Source: a virus
Lineage: Duplodnaviria > Heunggongvirae > Uroviricota > Caudoviricetes
Length of the DNA stretch: 40,883 bases
Virus record (IMG/VR): IMGVR_UViG_2923334124_000004
Reading direction: 5' to 3' (one strand)
A model generated the notes under the pieces. The model was not told the DNA's origin, did not search any database, and worked only from the letters and a program-made list of their open reading frames with translations. A program made the position numbers and the translations under genes. This document shows positions 14,778 to 39,599 of this stretch, in pieces (position 1 is the first letter of the stretch; every line of letters begins with the position of its first letter).

Positions 14778-14862
14778 GTAAGCGTAAACTGACCGCCGTA
14801 TGTAGCCATCAGACGAGAATTGGTAACTTAGACGCCCATCTGATATAGACGGACATCTAAGT

Positions 14863-15288
14863 ATGGAATTACAGGACTGGCGAAAAGAACCTCGTAAAAA
14901 CTATTCGAATGAATTCAAACTTCGTATGGTGGAACTGGCATCACAACCTGGAGCTTGTGTTGCACAGATTGCACGTGAAAATGGCGTCAATGATAATGTT
15001 ATTTTCAAATGGCTCAGGCTCTGGCAGAACGAAGGGCGTGTTTCGCGGCGTCTTCCGGTAACGACCTCTTCTGACACTGGCGTTGAATTATTACCTGTAG
15101 AAATAACGCCGGATGAGCAGAAAGAACCTGTGGCGGCCATTGCGCCGTCTTTATCCACTTCCACTCAGACCAGAGTCAGTGCCAGTTCCTGCAAGGTGGA
15201 ATTCCGTCACGGTAACATGACGCTGGAAAATCCATCGCCAGAGCTGCTCACAGTGTTGATCCGTGAACTGACCGGGAGGGGAAGATGA
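14863..15288 (+). CDS. tnpA: IS66-family accessory protein TnpA (orf1)
   Basis: 141 aa, first ORF of the IS; HTH-like N-terminus typical of IS66 orf1. Confidence 0.7.
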   Translation: MELQDWRKEPRKNYSNEFKLRMVELASQPGACVAQIARENGVNDNVIFKWLRLWQNEGRVSRRLPVTTSSDTGVELLPVEITPDEQKEPVAAIAPSLSTSTQTRVSASSCKVEFRHGNMTLENPSPELLTVLIRELTGRGR

Positions 15289-15635
15289 TCTCACTCCCAT
15301 CAGGTACCCGTATCTGGCTCGTTGCCGGCGTTACCGATATGCGTAAATCCTTCAACGGACTGGGAGAACAGGTACAACATGTGCTGAATGATAATCCCTT
15401 CTCCGGTCACCTGTTTATCTTCCGTGGCCGACGGGGTGACACCGTCAAAATTCTTTGGGCTGATGCTGATGGTCTGTGCCTGTTCACCAAACGCCTGGAG
15501 GAAGGCCAGTTTATCTGGCCTGCGGTACGTGACGGCAAGGTATCCATTACCCGCTCGCAACTGGCAATGCTCCTCGATAAGCTGGACTGGCGTCAGCCAA
15601 AAACATCCAGCCGTAACTCACTGACAATGTTGTAA
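15285..15635 (+). CDS. tnpB: IS66-family protein TnpB (orf2)
   Basis: 116 aa; overlaps orf1 by 4 nt as is usual in IS66; conserved IS66 orf2 character. Confidence 0.7.
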   Translation: MISLPSGTRIWLVAGVTDMRKSFNGLGEQVQHVLNDNPFSGHLFIFRGRRGDTVKILWADADGLCLFTKRLEEGQFIWPAVRDGKVSITRSQLAMLLDKLDWRQPKTSSRNSLTML

Positions 15636-15665
15636 AAAACTCCTGACCGCATTATAAAAACGGTC

Positions 15666-17279
15666 ATGAGTCAGAAATACCTCATTCGCATCGCAGAGCT
15701 GGAAAGGTTGCTCTCTGAGCAGGCTGAAGCCCTCCGTCAGAAAGACCAGCAACTGAGTCTGGTTGAAGAGACGGAAGCCTTCCTGCGCTCTGCACTGACA
15801 CGTGCCGAAGAAAAGATCGAAGAAGATGAACGGGAAATAGAACATCTGCGGGCTCAGATAGAAAAACTGCGCCGGATGCTGTTCGGTACCCGTTCTGAAA
15901 AACTGCGTCGTGAAGTTGAACTGGCTGAGGCTCTGCTGAAACAACGTGAACAGGACAGCGATCGTTACAGTGGGCGGGAAGACGATCCTCAGGTTCCCCG
16001 CCAGTTGCGACAGTCGCGCCATCGTCGTCCGTTACCGGCACACCTTCCCCGTGAAATACACCGCCTGGAGCCAGAAGAAAGCTGTTGCCCGGAGTGTGGC
16101 GGTGAGCTGGATTATCTGGGGGAAGTCAGCGCTGAACAGCTGGAACTGGTGAGCAGTGCCCTGAAAGTGATCCGCACAGAACGGGTAAAAAAAGCCTGTA
16201 CAAAATGTGACTGTATTGTTGAAGCACCGGCGCCGTCCCGCCCGATAGAGCGTGGTATCGCGGGCCCCGGATTACTTGCCCGCGTGTTAACGGGAAAATA
16301 CTGCGAACATCTGCCACTGTATCGTCAGAGTGAAATCTTTGCCCGCCAGGGTGTCGAACTGAGCCGGGCCTTACTCTCCAACTGGGTTGACGCGTGCTGC
16401 CAGTTAATGACACCGGTGAATGATGCCCTGTACCGTTATGTAATGAACACCCGCAAGGTTCACACTGATGACACACCGGTAAAGGTACTGGCACCGGGTC
16501 AGAAAAAGGCGAAAACAGGGCGTATCTGGACGTATGTCCGGGATGATCGCAATGTGGGTTCGTCATCTCCTCCAGCGGTCTGGTTCGCGTACTCGCCGAA
16601 CCGGCAGGGGAAACACCCGGAGCAACACCTCCGCCCCTTCCGGGGTATCCTGCAGGCGGATGCGTTCACAGGTTACGACAGGTTGTTCAGTGCAGAACGT
16701 GAAGGTGGTGCACTGACAGAAGTTGCGTGCTGGGCCCATGCCCGGCGAAAAATCCACGATGTATACATCAGCAGCAAAAGTGCGACGGCAGAAGAAGCCC
16801 TGAAGCGAATCAGTGAACTGTACGCCATCGAGGATGAAATACGGGGATTACCGGAGTCAGAGCGTCTTGCCGTCAGGCAGCAGCGAAGCAAAGTGTTACT
16901 GACGTCGCTGCATGAATGGATGGTGGAGAAGAATGGTACGCTGTCGAAAAAATCCAGACTGGGCGAAGCGTTCAGCTATGTACTGAATCAGTGGGATGCC
17001 CTCTGTTATTACAGTGATGACGGTCTGGCGGAGGCGGATAATAATGCTGCGGAAAGAGCGCTTCGTGCAGTCTGTCTCGGAAAGAAAAACTTTATGTTCT
17101 TTGGCAGCGATCACGGCGGCGAGCGTGGAGCACTGTTGTACGGGCTGATCGGCACCTGCCGTCTGAACGGTATCGATCCGGAAGCGTATCTGCGCCATAT
17201 CCTGAGCGTACTGCCGGAATGGCCTTCCAACCGAGTTGACGAACTCCTGCCATGGAACGTAGTACTCACCAATAAATAA
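15666..17279 (+). CDS. tnpC: IS66-family transposase TnpC
   Basis: 537 aa; N-terminal leucine-zipper-like coiled coil, CxxC...CxxC zinc motif (CPECG...CTKCD), and a DDE-type core, typical of IS66 transposases. Confidence 0.8.
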   Translation: MSQKYLIRIAELERLLSEQAEALRQKDQQLSLVEETEAFLRSALTRAEEKIEEDEREIEHLRAQIEKLRRMLFGTRSEKLRREVELAEALLKQREQDSDRYSGREDDPQVPRQLRQSRHRRPLPAHLPREIHRLEPEESCCPECGGELDYLGEVSAEQLELVSSALKVIRTERVKKACTKCDCIVEAPAPSRPIERGIAGPGLLARVLTGKYCEHLPLYRQSEIFARQGVELSRALLSNWVDACCQLMTPVNDALYRYVMNTRKVHTDDTPVKVLAPGQKKAKTGRIWTYVRDDRNVGSSSPPAVWFAYSPNRQGKHPEQHLRPFRGILQADAFTGYDRLFSAEREGGALTEVACWAHARRKIHDVYISSKSATAEEALKRISELYAIEDEIRGLPESERLAVRQQRSKVLLTSLHEWMVEKNGTLSKKSRLGEAFSYVLNQWDALCYYSDDGLAEADNNAAERALRAVCLGKKNFMFFGSDHGGERGALLYGLIGTCRLNGIDPEAYLRHILSVLPEWPSNRVDELLPWNVVLTNK

Positions 17280-17317
17280 GCGTCAATACGGTGCTCCGTT
17301 GACGCTTACTAACCAGG

Positions 17318-35274: not shown

Positions 35275-35845
35275 GCCATTACAACTCCCGCCACCGCTTG
35301 AGGGTGATATCAGTCTCAGGACGCTGGGAAGACTGGCAGGACGGCTGGATAACATCGACCTGAGCGTACTGATGGTCTTTCTCGTCGATATCGTCGACAG
35401 TTCCGCGCTGCCATGGCTGGGCGAGCAGTTCTCACTGTCTGGCGATGGCTGGGAGCTGGCGGAATCGGACGATGTTCGCCGCATGCTTATAAAAGCAGCC
35501 ATCGAACTGCACCGGTATAAAGGGACGCCGTGGTCAATCCGGGAAGTTATCCGCCGTTTTGGCTTTGGTGAAGTGGATCTGATTGAAGGCACAGGTCGTC
35601 TCAGTTACGACGGCAATCGCAGCTATAACGGACTGTTTGTTCATGGAGATGCAGCCGCCTGGGCAGTTTATCGCGTTATTCTGAAACAGCCCATTACTAA
35701 CGATCAGGCCGCGATGCTGCGTCAGACGCTGGCTGCATTTGCACCGGCCCGCTGCCATCTGGCCAGCCTGGAGTATCAGTCTGTGGCCATTCGCTATAAC
35801 AATACCGCCATCCATGATGGCAGTTATAACCACGGGAGCAGTTGA
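35267..35845 (+). CDS. tail protein I (P2 gpI-like)
   Basis: 192 aa; between the J-like and fibre genes. Confidence 0.65.
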   Translation: MTEPLQLPPPLEGDISLRTLGRLAGRLDNIDLSVLMVFLVDIVDSSALPWLGEQFSLSGDGWELAESDDVRRMLIKAAIELHRYKGTPWSIREVIRRFGFGEVDLIEGTGRLSYDGNRSYNGLFVHGDAAAWAVYRVILKQPITNDQAAMLRQTLAAFAPARCHLASLEYQSVAIRYNNTAIHDGSYNHGSS

Positions 35846-37095
35846 TTATGGGAAACCTGAATGAAACAGAAAAGTGGGAAGAAAATATCTATCAACTGGA
35901 GACATCAGATCCGGTTCTGGGTGGTGCAGACGGGATATCAAATCGAGCCCCCCGGCAACTGGCAAACAGGACGAAATGGCTGAAGAAGAAAACGGAGGAA
36001 GCCGCACAGTCACTGGCTGAACACGTACGTTCCCGTAACCACCCGGACGCGACACTGACAGCTAAGGGGTTCACCCAACTGAGCAGTGCCACCAACAGCA
36101 CCTCTGAAACGCTGGCCGCCACACCAAAAGCGGTCAAGGCTGCATACGACCTGGCAGCCGGCAAGGCGCCTGCCAGCCACACTCACCCGTGGAGTCAGAT
36201 AACGGGAGTGCCTGCGGCTTCACTGACGGCAAAAGGCACCGTACAACTGAGCAGCGCCACGGACAGTCAATCAGAAACTGAGGCTGCCACGCCGAAGGCG
36301 GTCAAGGCTGCATACGACCTTGCAGCCGGCAAGGCGCCCGTCAGCCACACTCACCCGTGGAGTCAGATAACGGGAGTGCCTGCTGCCTCGCTGACGGCAA
36401 AAGGCACCGTACAATTGAGCAGTGCCATCAACAGCACGTCTGAAATACTGGCCGCCACACCGAAAGCGGTCAAGGCTGCATACGATCTGGCAAACGGAAA
36501 ACAACCGGCAGATGCCACGCTCACTGCTCTGGCAGGACTTGCCACTGCAGCAGATCGGTTGCCTTATTTTACCGGAGCAGACCGCGCAGAGCTGGCAACC
36601 CTTACAGCTATTGGTCGCGCTATTATCGCTAAGGGCAGTATAAAAGATGTCCTCAATTACCTTGGTTTGGGGGAAGGCTCGGCGCTGCCCGTTGGTGTAC
36701 CTGTTCCGTGGCCCACTGCCACACCGCCAGCAGGCTGGTTAAAGTGCGACGGGCGCGCCTTTACAAAAGAACAATATCCTGTTCTGGCCAGAGTCTACCC
36801 GACCCTCCGTCTTCCCGATTTACGCGGTGAGTTTATCCGTGGATGGGACGACGGGCGAAAAGTGGATACAGGGCGCGATCTGCTTTCACGGCAGGATGGT
36901 ACAAGTTTTTCTCATTACGCAGGTAATTTTGACATTGGGTCTGGTCATTCAATCAATAACTATGACCAAATCGTTGACAACCAACCTGGATTCTCCCGTT
37001 TTTCATTTGCAGGTCCTTCGCGAGGCGATGGGGTTAATTATGTGACCATTCGTCCCCGTAACATTGCGTTTAATTACATCGTAAGGGCGGCATAG
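35842..37095 (+). CDS. tail fibre protein; constant N-terminal part fused to variable C-terminal cassette a
   Basis: 417 aa; three 56-aa fibre repeats; the C-terminal region begins at a Gin-type crossover-like site and is shared with two other cassettes. Confidence 0.8.
   Translation: MIMGNLNETEKWEENIYQLETSDPVLGGADGISNRAPRQLANRTKWLKKKTEEAAQSLAEHVRSRNHPDATLTAKGFTQLSSATNSTSETLAATPKAVKAAYDLAAGKAPASHTHPWSQITGVPAASLTAKGTVQLSSATDSQSETEAATPKAVKAAYDLAAGKAPVSHTHPWSQITGVPAASLTAKGTVQLSSAINSTSEILAATPKAVKAAYDLANGKQPADATLTALAGLATAADRLPYFTGADRAELATLTAIGRAIIAKGSIKDVLNYLGLGEGSALPVGVPVPWPTATPPAGWLKCDGRAFTKEQYPVLARVYPTLRLPDLRGEFIRGWDDGRKVDTGRDLLSRQDGTSFSHYAGNFDIGSGHSINNYDQIVDNQPGFSRFSFAGPSRGDGVNYVTIRPRNIAFNYIVRAA
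36055..36530 (+). repeat. tail-fibre tandem repeats (about 2.8 x 168 bp) within the fibre gene
   Basis: Period of 168 bp confirmed from GGAGTCAGAT at 36191 and 36359; protein repeat TAKG..QLSSA..S.SE..AATPKAVKAAYDLAAGKAP.SHTHPWSQITGVPAASL. Confidence 0.8.
36650..36675 (+). other. Gin/Hin-type crossover-like site 1 (TCCTCAATTACC-TT-GGTTTGGGGGAA), inside the fibre gene
   Basis: 12-2-12 layout whose right half GGTTTGGGGGAA resembles the gix/hix half-site GGTTTTGGATAA as I recall it; marks the start of about 200 bp shared by all three cassettes. Confidence 0.5.
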
Positions 37096-37114
37096 AAACG
37101 TTGGTTTGGGGGAA
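37089..37114 (+). other. Gin/Hin-type crossover-like site 2 (GGCATAGAAACG-TT-GGTTTGGGGGAA), direct orientation
   Basis: Same right half-site and TT core as site 1; overlaps the fibre stop codon; begins the homology of the silent cassette. Confidence 0.5.
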
Positions 37115-37567
37115 GGCTCTGCATTGCCTGTTGGTGTACCGGTTCCATGGCCCACCGCCACACCGCCAGCAGGCTGGTTACAGTGCAACGGAGCTACGTT
37201 CACCAAAGAACAATATCCTGTTCTGGTCAGAGTCTACCCGACCCTCCGTCTTCCCGATTTGCGCGGTGAGTTTATCCGTGGATGGGACGGTGGTCGCAAG
37301 GTTGATACCGGGCGTGCGCTACTTTCATTTCAGGAAGGGACTATCGTATCCGGTTTTGATGATAATGATACCGGAGATATCAGTTCGCTCGGCTCTACAC
37401 AATACGGATTTGGTGACGCTTTAACCTCTAATCAACTGGGGGTCTTAAATGGCAAAAAGTGGATATTTGATGCATCCTCTAAAGGTGCACAAAGATATGA
37501 CTGGTGGGCTTATGTATCAGCTCGCCCCCGCAATATCGCATTTAACTATATCGTGAGGGCGGCGTGA
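37106..37567 (+). other. silent alternative tail-fibre C-terminal cassette b (promoterless, no start codon of its own)
   Basis: Begins GEGSALPVGVPVPWPTATPPAGWL... like the expressed fibre C-terminus, then diverges; in phase with the fibre constant part relative to the TT core; the track M is a TTG artefact. Confidence 0.55.
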
Positions 37568-37573
37568 TACCGT

Positions 37574-38188
37574 TCAGCCGGCAAGCGCCAGTGGCGCTTC
37601 CGGCCAGCTGATTTCAGGTGCCTTGCTGATATCCAGTGCGTTCAGCTCGTCGATATAATCCAGCACGGCGTTCAGTTTTGCCGTTTCTTCTGGTTTCAGA
37701 CTGCGACCAGCACGCAGTTTGAGGTTGATAAGATCGACGGACGCCATCGCCTGTTTCACCCGTTGCTGGCGTTGCTGTCTGGCAACCTCCAGTTCTGCGG
37801 CTCGCTGCCGTTCAGTATCGGTTACCCACGCCTCACCGTTCCAGGTATCCCATGGCGTGGCTGGCTGTTTTGTGGTGGTGTCCGCCGGGTAATCACCCGG
37901 TTGGGTAATCAGAACGGGGTTACCGTTCTCCGTGCTGTATACCGTCTCGCCGCGGTGATCAGGCACATGCTCCCACCCGTTCAGCGTGGCAGTCCGGCAA
38001 ACCACGTAACCCGAAATTGCTTCCGGCGGTGCATCGGCGCACGAATGTGCCGGAGTACCCACCCCAAGGGCGAGATACTCCACAGAGGATGAGGTGTATT
38101 CCCGGGTTTCCTCGTCATAGTGATATACAGTGATATCGCCCGCTACAGTGGCGATACCGTTTTCATCCAGAACTGCAGTGTTACTCAT
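37574..38188 (-). CDS. tail fibre assembly protein (Tfa/U-like)
   Basis: 204 aa; VYHYDEETREY and C-terminal DYIDELNALDISKAPEISWPEAP are typical of Tfa chaperones; start overlaps the stop of minus-strand cassette c (TAATG). Confidence 0.7.
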   Translation of the reverse strand: MSNTAVLDENGIATVAGDITVYHYDEETREYTSSSVEYLALGVGTPAHSCADAPPEAISGYVVCRTATLNGWEHVPDHRGETVYSTENGNPVLITQPGDYPADTTTKQPATPWDTWNGEAWVTDTERQRAAELEVARQQRQQRVKQAMASVDLINLKLRAGRSLKPEETAKLNAVLDYIDELNALDISKAPEISWPEAPLALAG

Positions 38189-38691
38189 TAAACTGCCCTC
38201 ACAATGTAATTAAGTGCAATGCTACGGGGTCTGACAGTGATACCCTTCGCATACCCGCTTCTGATAGAGGTCAGAATAGTAGCCTGCATACCATTGTCTG
38301 ACATTGCCACGACAGGATCGCTGAATGTTGTCCCGTCCGGCATTTTAAAGCTGCCCTCACGAAGGTCTGTAATGGAATCTTCATTGTTGAATCCCATGCC
38401 GACTATCCCCGAGGTTCCCGTAGTGTCCTGGTTATAATAATCCAGCATTGCTGTTCTTAACAGCGTTGCCCCTTGTGCGGACAGCAACTTACGTCCTGTA
38501 TCAACTTTGCGCCCGTCGTCCCATCCACGGATAAACTCACCGCGTAAATCGGGAAGACGGAGGGTCGGGTAGACTCTGGCCAGAACAGGATATTGTTCTT
38601 TTGTAAAGGCGCGCCCGTCGCACTTTAACCAGCCTGCTGGCGGTGTGGCGGTGGGCCACGGAACAGGCACACCAACGGGTAGCGCCGAGCC
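38188..38691 (-). other. silent alternative tail-fibre C-terminal cassette c (inverted orientation)
   Basis: The minus-strand frame reads GEGSALPVGVPVPWPTATPPAGWLKCDGRAF... from the crossover site and then a distinct C-terminus; it would fuse in frame to the fibre constant part after inversion. Confidence 0.6.
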
Positions 38692-38717
38692 TTCTCCTAA
38701 ACCAACGTTTATCTCTC
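38692..38717 (-). other. Gin/Hin-type crossover-like site 3 (reads GAGAGATAAACG-TT-GGTTTAGGAGAA on the minus strand), inverted orientation
   Basis: Inverted counterpart of sites 1 and 2 with the same TT core; lies about 55 bp upstream of the invertase gene. Confidence 0.5.
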
Positions 38718-38771
38718 AAATCCTCCCCACATTATCTCAGTACTTTAACCACTCAAAAGGGAGTATTTTTA

Positions 38772-39344
38772 ATGCTGATTGGCTACATACGTGTGTCAAC
38801 AAATGACCAAAACACAGATTTGCAACGCAATGCATTAATGTGCGCAGGATGTGAACAGATTTTTGAGGACAAAATGAGCGGAACCAAGTCGGAACGACCA
38901 GGCCTGAAACGCGCTTTAAAGTGCCTTAAAAGAGGGGATACATTGGTGGTCTGGAAGCTGGATCGGTTGGGTAGAAGAATGAAACACCTCATTGCTCTCA
39001 CAGAAGAGCTACGCGCAAAAGGTGTCAATTTTCGCAGTCTGACGGATTCAATCGATACCAGCACTCCGATGGGAAGGTTCTTTTTTCATATGATGGGTGC
39101 ACTGGCAGAAATGGAGCGTGAACTGATAGTTGAGCGCACGCTGGCTGGACTGGCTGCTGCGCGAGCACAAGGAAGAGTTGGAGGACGTCGCCCGAAACTG
39201 ACGAAGGAGCAGCATGAGCAGATCGCAAGATTGCTCCAGAAAGGGTATGACAGAAAGCGGCTGGCAATTATCTATGATATTGGACTGTCAACGATCTACC
39301 GCTATCACCCTGTTGGGACTGTCATAACGCAACCTGAAATGTAA
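38772..39344 (+). CDS. serine DNA invertase (Gin/Pin/Hin/Cin family)
   Basis: MLIGYIRVSTNDQNTDLQRNAL...VVWKLDRLGR...MGALAEMERELI is the resolvase/invertase catalytic domain with the active-site serine; C-terminal HTH; ATG 38772 preceded by GGGAG. Confidence 0.85.
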   Translation: MLIGYIRVSTNDQNTDLQRNALMCAGCEQIFEDKMSGTKSERPGLKRALKCLKRGDTLVVWKLDRLGRRMKHLIALTEELRAKGVNFRSLTDSIDTSTPMGRFFFHMMGALAEMERELIVERTLAGLAAARAQGRVGGRRPKLTKEQHEQIARLLQKGYDRKRLAIIYDIGLSTIYRYHPVGTVITQPEM

Positions 39345-39376
39345 TTCTTTTTCAAATAATGAAACGCCGCGTGGAT

Positions 39377-39429
39377 GCCATTTATCGCACAAGATAGAGT
39401 GCATTTATCGCGCGGCGCATCATTCTTCA
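39377..39429 (+). repeat. prophage right terminus with two direct CATTTATCGC repeats (candidate transposase binding sites) and terminal ...CTTCA
   Basis: GCCATTTATCGCAC (39377-39390) and TGCATTTATCGCGC (39400-39413), 23 bp apart; the last bases CATTCTTCA resemble the Mu right end. Confidence 0.55.
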
Positions 39430-39527: not shown

Positions 39528-39556
39528 GAAAAAAAACGCCGGCAATGTGCCGACGT
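39528..39556 (-). terminator. rho-independent terminator of aroA (host)
   Basis: The minus strand reads CGGCACATTGCCG GCG TTTTTTTT about 45 bp downstream of the aroA stop. Confidence 0.5.
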
Positions 39557-39599
39557 CTTTGAAAAGAAAGGATTGTCTATGTTATCGCCCGTTATTCAT

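Follow-up and report, generated by a model that had tools for sequence, protein, structure and literature searches.

We analyzed a 40,883-nt stretch of DNA (IMG/VR virus record IMGVR_UViG_2923334124_000004; hereafter, the window), the right end of which carries Mu-like tail and baseplate genes (Baseplate_J, Tail_P2_I) and, after them, a tail-fibre gene, two further fibre-tip cassettes, a single gene for a tail-fibre assembly protein (Tfa) and a serine DNA invertase (Table 1). In database comparison the fibre region was 100% identical to genomes of E. coli ST131 (e.g. JJ1886, O25b:H4), and aroA adjoins the prophage locus; by its sequence, the element is the BcepMu-like prophage Phi2 of E. coli ST131 (strain EC958). 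For Phi2 of EC958, Forde et al. (2014; PMC4134206) described an alternative PacBio contig at the locus and inversion seen in PacBio reads, in culture. Table 3 of that paper gives two Phi2 crossover sites and a 2067-bp invertible segment, and one of its figure legends presents three prophages as mirror-image pairs, each of a fibre gene and its cognate "minor tail fibre gene".

Table 1. Features of the invertible tail-fibre module (positions in the window)
Feature	Positions	Strand	Description
Fibre gene	35842-37095	+	Three Phage_fiber_2 repeats and a Collar domain (Pfam); its 3' end is cassette a
Constant N-terminal fibre part	35842-36663	+	Ends at the centre of site s1
Three 168-nt Phage_fiber_2 repeats	36053-36556	+	Within the constant fibre part
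Crossover site s1	36650-36675	+	TCCTCAATTACC-TT-GGTTTGGGGGAA; central TT at 36662-36663
Cassette a	36664-37095	+	Tip expressed in the window isomer; Pfam Collar, E 3.2e-15
Crossover site s2	37089-37114	+	GGCATAGAAACG-TT-GGTTTGGGGGAA; central TT at 37101-37102
Cassette b	37103-37567	+	Collar-domain open reading frame (ORF) without an N-terminal part of its own; silent in the window isomer
tfa, 204 aa	37574-38188	-	Pfam Caudo_TAP (PF02413), E 5.6e-27, 94.9 bits against a cut-off of 22.1
Cassette c	38188-38703	-	Collar domain; inverted in the window; the sole tip with tfa directly 3'
Crossover site s3	38692-38717	-	Minus-strand reading GAGAGATAAACG-TT-GGTTTAGGAGAA; plus-strand central AA at 38704-38705
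Serine DNA invertase, Gin/Pin/Cin/Min type, 190 aa	38772-39344	+	Pfam Resolvase, E 8.2e-51; HTH_7, E 1.3e-12

Sequence and Pfam searches agreed with an earlier reading of this DNA from its letters alone (the original prediction) that the expressed fibre is followed directly by a second crossover site and a silent cassette; the stop codon of cassette a (TAG, 37093-37095) sits in the left half of s2. The same source had identified a sole Tfa-like gene, translationally coupled to inverted cassette c and converging on cassette b, and this too was borne out by Pfam and by tblastn of the window: the tfa ATG overlaps the TAA stop of c as TAATG, and the tfa stop lies tail-to-tail with that of cassette b, 6 nt away. 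A Pfam scan and tblastn detected no second Caudo_TAP gene in the whole window, and tblastn of the whole window with 50 Tfa proteins returned nothing convincing outside 37574-38188. The two intervals in which remnants of a lost chaperone had been proposed to lie (37095-37110 and 37568-37573) held none in this search, the gaps there being 0-10 nt.

All three crossover sites are 26 bp long with a TT/AA core, in agreement with the consensus table of PMC4134206. Site s1 matches Phi2_5prime in Table 3 of that paper and the left half of s3 matches Phi2_3prime, while s2, a direct repeat of s1 in the same orientation, is missing from this two-site table. Extending to the right of each site is a homology of 229-231 nt, far above chance, that encodes the collar domain of the tips (a and c are 94% complementary, b and c 86% complementary, and a and b 85% identical as direct repeats).

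We built the possible isomers in silico by exchange at the central dinucleotides of the three sites, and formal enumeration yielded exactly four. With N standing for the constant fibre part, isomer A is the window arrangement (N-a> b> <tfa <c); isomer A2 has a followed by co-oriented c and tfa (N-a> c> tfa> <b); isomer C is the classical tip-plus-tfa arrangement (N-c> tfa> <b <a); and isomer B places b on the shaft (N-b> <tfa <c <a). The constant part fuses in frame to each of the three cassettes, and the fibres are 417, 428 and 445 aa long. All four predicted 3601-nt isomers were present at 100.0% identity in complete E. coli genomes, including A2 and B, which require s2. In mechanistic terms, the invertase would recombine s1 or s2 with the oppositely oriented s3 and, after a first inversion, also s1 with the inverted s2, and each resulting isomer would thereby present one of the three tips on the same shaft.

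Isomers were counted with junction queries of 632-716 nt (E <= 1e-300) in genomes that are clonally related, such that the frequencies are descriptive only. The junction of c beside the invertase (isomer A) was found in 138 genomes (103 at at least 99% identity), that of b beside the invertase (A2) in 90 (87), that of the constant part with b (B) in 135 (119) and that of the constant part with c (C) in 235 (187), making C the commonest isomer at this identity (187/496). Queries with the full 3.6-kb isomers, which returned 163, 235, 213 and 176 records at >=80% coverage, were rejected as counts because A and B, and likewise A2 and C, have long same-strand stretches in common that were joined in the search. 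Since s2-dependent junctions are found in genomes, s2 is a working crossover site, and the Phi2 switch has three active sites and four isomers. For annotation, this means that ST131 assemblies differ at the locus for a biological reason.

The module is an ordinary member of the Min/Pin multi-cassette fibre switches, and its locus has already been published in simplified form. It is the same locus as the Phi2 switch of EC958, alike in its sites (TCCTCAATTACCTT/GGTTT.GG.GAA and GAGAGATAAACGTT/...), in the 2067-bp segment, and in having Phage_fiber_2 repeats in the constant part and a Collar domain in the invertible part; to the table and legend of PMC4134206 cited above, the present analysis adds the internal site s2, a third cassette, the set of four isomers and the presence of just one tfa. 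With a recombinase of ~190 aa that has a resolvase catalytic domain and, C-terminally, a helix-turn-helix (HTH), opposed 26-bp sites and real in-frame inversion, the module fits the Gin/Pin/Cin/Min (Din) invertase systems, and with three sites, three tips and four isomers it fits Min-type multiple inversion. The p15B Min system has 240 isomers. The p15B system (Sandmeier et al. 1990-1992) and similar modules on plasmids resemble the window in a Pin/Min-type invertase, in having more than two sites, in tandem and inverted cassettes of ~430-500 nt, and in one constant fibre gene and one tfa, but p15B has six sites and is a P1-like plasmid, whereas the window module has three sites and four isomers and belongs to a BcepMu-like transposable prophage.

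Where the module departs from Mu-type switches is the number of chaperones. Mu G (Gin), P1 C (Cin), e14 P (Pin) and the P2-like pro483, the last with an inverted c-tfa-invertase arrangement as in the window, have in common with it the recombinase family, 26-bp sites and a constant N-part with alternative C-parts, but each has two cassettes with a co-oriented Tfa apiece (U/U', tfaE/tfaP, pro483 ORF32/ORF33), whereas the window has three cassettes and one Tfa and fails this one-chaperone-per-cassette pattern. The premise of the original prediction, that each variable fibre part in Mu-type G segments has its own chaperone, is accordingly right for Mu, P1, e14 and pro483 but does not extend to the p15B Min layout. 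The R64 shufflon (Rci, PilV tips) likewise shuffles many 3' cassettes onto one constant 5' part by site-specific inversion, but it uses a tyrosine recombinase, serves a pilus adhesin and has no chaperone gene in its array, and is not a relative.

Comparison with relatives, which had been suggested as a check, revealed the same multi-cassette, single-tfa layout again and again, with no extra tfa beside a or b. One tfa accompanies cassettes x, b and c in a related prophage at another chromosomal site of strain FORC_031 (locus L087); a, b and c on the ~95-kb plasmid p13ZX36-90 (L089), whose module is 96.5% identical to that of the window and is attached to a different, much longer fibre shaft; x, c, b and a on plasmid pCUVET20-PYO4.3 (L092); y and c on an S. 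Typhi plasmid (L091); five cassettes in a P2-like prophage (L088); and six collar cassettes on plasmid NZ_CP102949 (L090), which has the p15B min gene layout. The gene table of PMC5786510 lists, for a region 99% identical to p15B min, one tfaE among about eight small ORFs. At least six independent modules, spread over four phage or plasmid backbones, have this layout. Neighbouring tandem cassettes in these arrays are mostly ~10 nt apart (39 nt in L092), and all of the single-tfa modules examined contain a cassette that meets tfa 3' end to 3' end (b in the window, x in L088, y in L091). Judged by this distribution, one tfa per module is a normal, widespread and economical design and not the residue of a loss.

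The invertible module together with its invertase (36659-39344) is common, at 96-97% identity, to E. coli plasmids of ~90 kb with phage genes and unrelated shafts (L089, L092), which suggests that the module has been transferred horizontally in one piece. Within it, the variable part of c is almost identical in DNA across L087, L089, L091, L092 and L094 (dS ~0.007), in contrast to the diverged cassettes a (dS 0.25) and x (dS 0.6-1.9); the near-identity of c could mean that the c-tfa unit spread recently, or that its DNA is under additional constraint, for example from an embedded promoter.

The expressed fibre matches the receptor-binding tip of T4 gp37 (PDB 2xgf, E 6.5e-15) up to and including its last residues, with the C-terminal NIAFNYIVR motif aligned. 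In T4 gp37, the collar domain D10 consists of residues 811-881 and 1010-1026, the needle D11 being inserted into it (PMC6957217). Tips a, b and c fit this gp37-type plan, in which a variable insertion splits the collar into an N-terminal part and a C-terminal strand: ~65 conserved N-terminal residues are followed by a variable insert of 70-100 residues (72 aa in cassette a, directly after its collar domain) and then by the C-terminal RPRNIAFNYIVRAA, and all cassettes retain both the collar scaffold and the C-terminal motif of c. Scanning one genome per bacterial species, we collected 121 collar tips from 80 loci; the RPRNIAFNYIVRAA end motif was nearly invariant in most of them, and in the alignment of collar tips conservation, on a scale up to 9, was 6-9 for the collar and for the end motif, against 0-2 for the insert. 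By this homology, a, b and c are miniature counterparts of the gp37 tip of T4, with a constant collar scaffold and a variable, presumably receptor-binding insert. They differ from it in the size of the insert (~128 aa for D11, against 70-100 aa), and neither T4 nor lambda uses DNA inversion. For this tip family, a varying segment of 30-70 aa and a conserved downstream assembly protein of 184-207 aa have been described (PMC9659904), and the c-tfa unit of the window is ~67% identical in DNA to stf-tfa of phages HK97 and HK106. In the Tfa-less cassettes, inserts that have diverged enough to be compared are under purifying selection, both in cassette a (omega 0.07-0.25 and dS 0.12-0.30, versus diverged copies) and in cassette x (omega 0.02-0.07, dS 0.6-1.9).

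Sequence comparison places the window Tfa in the lambda Tfa/T4 gp38/Mu U family (Caudo_TAP): it has 1495 homologues, and those named at their source are called tail fiber assembly protein or phage tail protein. It would act as a chaperone, in the manner of gp38 on T4 gp37 and of Tfa on lambda/HK97 Stf. T4 gp37 requires gp38 (PMC6957217), and lambda Tfa has been reported, in a study by Montag (1989) as cited in PMC9659904, to be able to replace gp38. An AlphaFold2 (AF2) model of the window Tfa (predicted local distance difference test score 79.9) comprises a beta-rich N-domain (1-123) and a helical hairpin (125-184), and a sequence search of the PDB with Tfa gave no match. Nearly all of the listed homologues (P0001-P0120) have a second precomputed Pfam family, PF28596, besides PF02413. 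We also considered that the Tfa N-domain might be a diverged collar domain, given a BLASTP match of E 0.001 over 64 aa between the two, but profile-profile comparison left only an 8-residue motif at a probability of 4%, and the idea was not supported. The motif itself, PD(H/L)RGE, occurs both at residues 74-81 of Tfa, in its N-domain, and in the collar domain of each of the three cassettes (VPDHRGE versus LPDLRGE), and may be chance or local mimicry.

We asked whether one such protein could suit three tips by comparing the variation of Tfa with that of its partner in 50 tip/Tfa pairs from the one-genome-per-species scan, taking residues 1-115 as the Tfa N-domain. Median pairwise identity was 44% for the Tfa N-domain and 12% for the tip inserts, and in a Mantel test, which is correlative and rests on phylogenetically related loci, the N-domain varied with the collar (rho 0.47, p 0.001) and hardly with the insert (rho 0.11). 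Tips paired with Tfa proteins whose N-domains are at least 70% identical had a median insert identity of 13%, and the Tfa closest to that of the window (65% in the N-domain) partners a tip whose insert is 15% identical to that of c. The Tfa N-domain thus tracks the collar and not the insert, which fits a chaperone that recognises the constant scaffold. A class-specific division of labour is likewise suggested by plasmid pS143-4 (L093), where a small, separate Tfa comes after a non-collar tip, and two collar tips are accompanied by a single collar-type Tfa.

Combining these results, we favour, with a probability of roughly 60%, a three-site, p15B-Min-like module at the 3' end of the fibre gene in which a single Tfa, specific to the tip class, is common to all three tips. 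Tfa would recognise the invariant collar scaffold, and would hence be class-specific and able to fold a, b and c alike. We infer both its action on a and b and its production in every isomer. Of the three readings that the original prediction had left standing, use of the single Tfa in trans by a and b fits best, given the common scaffold, the co-variation, the recurrence of the layout and L093; folding of a and b without a chaperone is disfavoured, and the loss of a former chaperone, leaving a partly crippled state, is not supported. Tips of the collar type, like that of gp37, appear interchangeable as inserts in a constant scaffold with one class-wide chaperone; if they are, host range could be changed by swapping tips while leaving the chaperone in place.

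Several observations weigh against this account, some of them concerning how Tfa would be supplied. Co-transcription of tfa with the tip is possible for c, for a solely in isomer A2, and for b never: b is joined tail-to-tail to tfa without an intervening site, and by our enumeration the two cannot be co-transcribed in any isomer. In isomers A and B, which together make up ~45% of sequenced lysogens (222/496), tfa is antisense to the fibre gene, and a sigma-70 scan of 35500-39400 found no promoter able to drive it there. The 65-nt spacer between s3 and the invertase has no feature specific to single-tfa modules and recurs unchanged in L093, a locus with two Tfa genes. Cassette b shows 0 synonymous and 1-4 non-synonymous differences, too few for a dN/dS estimate. 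Fold searches with the AF2 model of Tfa gave no informative match among solved structures that would show its binding to a tip, and the co-variation test carries the limits given above. Furthermore, collar/collar modules with one Tfa per tip do exist (L026, L036), and the Tfa proteins of b-like tips elsewhere are just 34-35% identical to that of the window in the N-domain. These b-like tips (L007, L009), as well as a-like ones (L049, L039, L059), occur in other genera (Xenorhabdus, Photorhabdus), where an overlapping Tfa gene of their own comes next. Since their counterparts elsewhere carry a Tfa of their own, cassettes a and b probably entered the module without their original partners.

The supply problem is taken at face value by a rival explanation in which Tfa is strictly needed and is made just when it is co-oriented with the fibre gene (isomers C and A2), such that A and B lysogens release fibre-defective particles. 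Cassette b would then never be usable, as a passenger or a reserve copy, and the switch would be partly crippled in effect, by design and not through recent loss. The missing promoter for the inverted tfa and the fact that b is never co-oriented with it argue in this direction, as do the highest count, that of isomer C, and the dependence of T4 gp37 on gp38, and the exclusively non-synonymous differences of b are compatible with relaxed selection. However, isomer frequencies in clonally related genomes are uninformative on virion fitness, and a tail-to-tail cassette is present in every single-tfa module examined, with x, in this very position, under the strong purifying selection noted above. 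Cassette b is itself an intact ORF that stays at least 99% identical at the protein level in elements with a dS of 0.25 for cassette a, and on balance we consider such dead-end isomers rather unlikely. Also improbable is that a and b fold without Tfa, for example through strong trimerisation of the shaft, leaving c alone in need of its coupled chaperone. It would explain why c is the sole cassette coupled to tfa, and about half of the scanned collar tips do lack a co-oriented downstream Tfa (58 of 121 have one); in T4 gp37, gp38 is reportedly bypassed by extended coiled-coil duplications (Qu et al. 2004). Yet the a-like and b-like tips elsewhere each have an overlapping Tfa gene, and all three cassettes keep the collar scaffold and C-terminal motif of c. 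Nor do the Tfa-less tips of the scan serve as evidence for chaperone independence, since both cases that we checked (L005, L038) turned out to be remnants, namely orphan fragments or prophage ends flanked by host genes.

A recent degenerative loss, in which a and b once had their own tfa genes and the arrangement is now decaying, is the least plausible explanation, and we regard it as very improbable. Related tips elsewhere have their own Tfa, and the IVRAA codons that end a and b keep a GAGGG-like sequence corresponding to the tfa ribosome-binding site after c. The latter, however, is explained by the conserved protein motif, and against a loss stand the purifying selection on a and x, the absence of any tfa remnant in the window, and the recurrence of tight cassette-site-cassette junctions with a single tfa in at least six independent modules on four backbones. 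The specific route that had been proposed, a deletion between the directly repeated sites s1 and s2, is not supported either: it would take out cassette a, not a tfa.

The preferred account, a single Tfa acting in trans, leaves tfa in need of expression in both orientations. The gene has a Shine-Dalgarno sequence of its own (GAGGG, 7 nt before the ATG), and with its own ribosome-binding site it needs just a transcript. If the tail-to-tail cassette is a design rule of such modules, then either the c-tfa unit contains an orientation-independent tfa promoter, which would supply Tfa in trans in the ~45% of lysogens concerned, or collar tips fold without Tfa in such fibres; we advance this only tentatively, and doubt it more than we believe it. 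If true, either outcome would change the accepted picture in which a chaperone must be expressed together with its tip. How an inverted gene supplies its chaperone is a small and directly testable question on the chaperone dependence of tail-fibre assembly.

Two further observations touch on these subjects. A terminator-like hairpin followed by a T-run lies at 37665-37684 on the plus strand, ~100 nt past the b stop and antisense within tfa, in a region where such hits are not above shuffle expectation; it would terminate transcription of the fibre operon in isomers A and B. In the scan, further tandem runs of collar cassettes or of entire fibre genes, having few Tfa genes if any, were seen at L014, L015, L031 (Escherichia sp. 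MOD1-EC7003), L062 and, in Photorhabdus, L053, L069, L071 and L079. The Photorhabdus loci have 3-5 collar-tip genes and at most one detected Tfa, and these runs, as well as L014, L015, L031 and L062, are split over short contigs in draft assemblies.

Outside the module, a hairpin with a T-run at ~39530-39560 on the minus strand lies just past the aroA stop and, judged by eye, would be the serC-aroA terminator, in which case host transcription is unlikely to run on into the prophage at its right end. The GenBank entry "Escherichia phage PhiKM" (classed in Bcepmuvirus) matches the prophage at 100% identity wherever the PhiKM record covers it, and a literature search for phage PhiKM found no paper. 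Elsewhere in the window, an IS66-family element (14778-17309), with ORFs matching HTH_Tnp_1, TnpB_IS66 and DDE_Tnp_IS66 and terminal inverted repeats at 14778-14801 and 17286-17309, splits the Mu gp28-like large terminase gene (14480... / ...18615). It is absent from PhiKM and occurs at the same place in 3 of 5426 complete E. coli genomes. The prophage copy in the window is probably packaging-defective through this insertion, while most ST131 copies probably are not.

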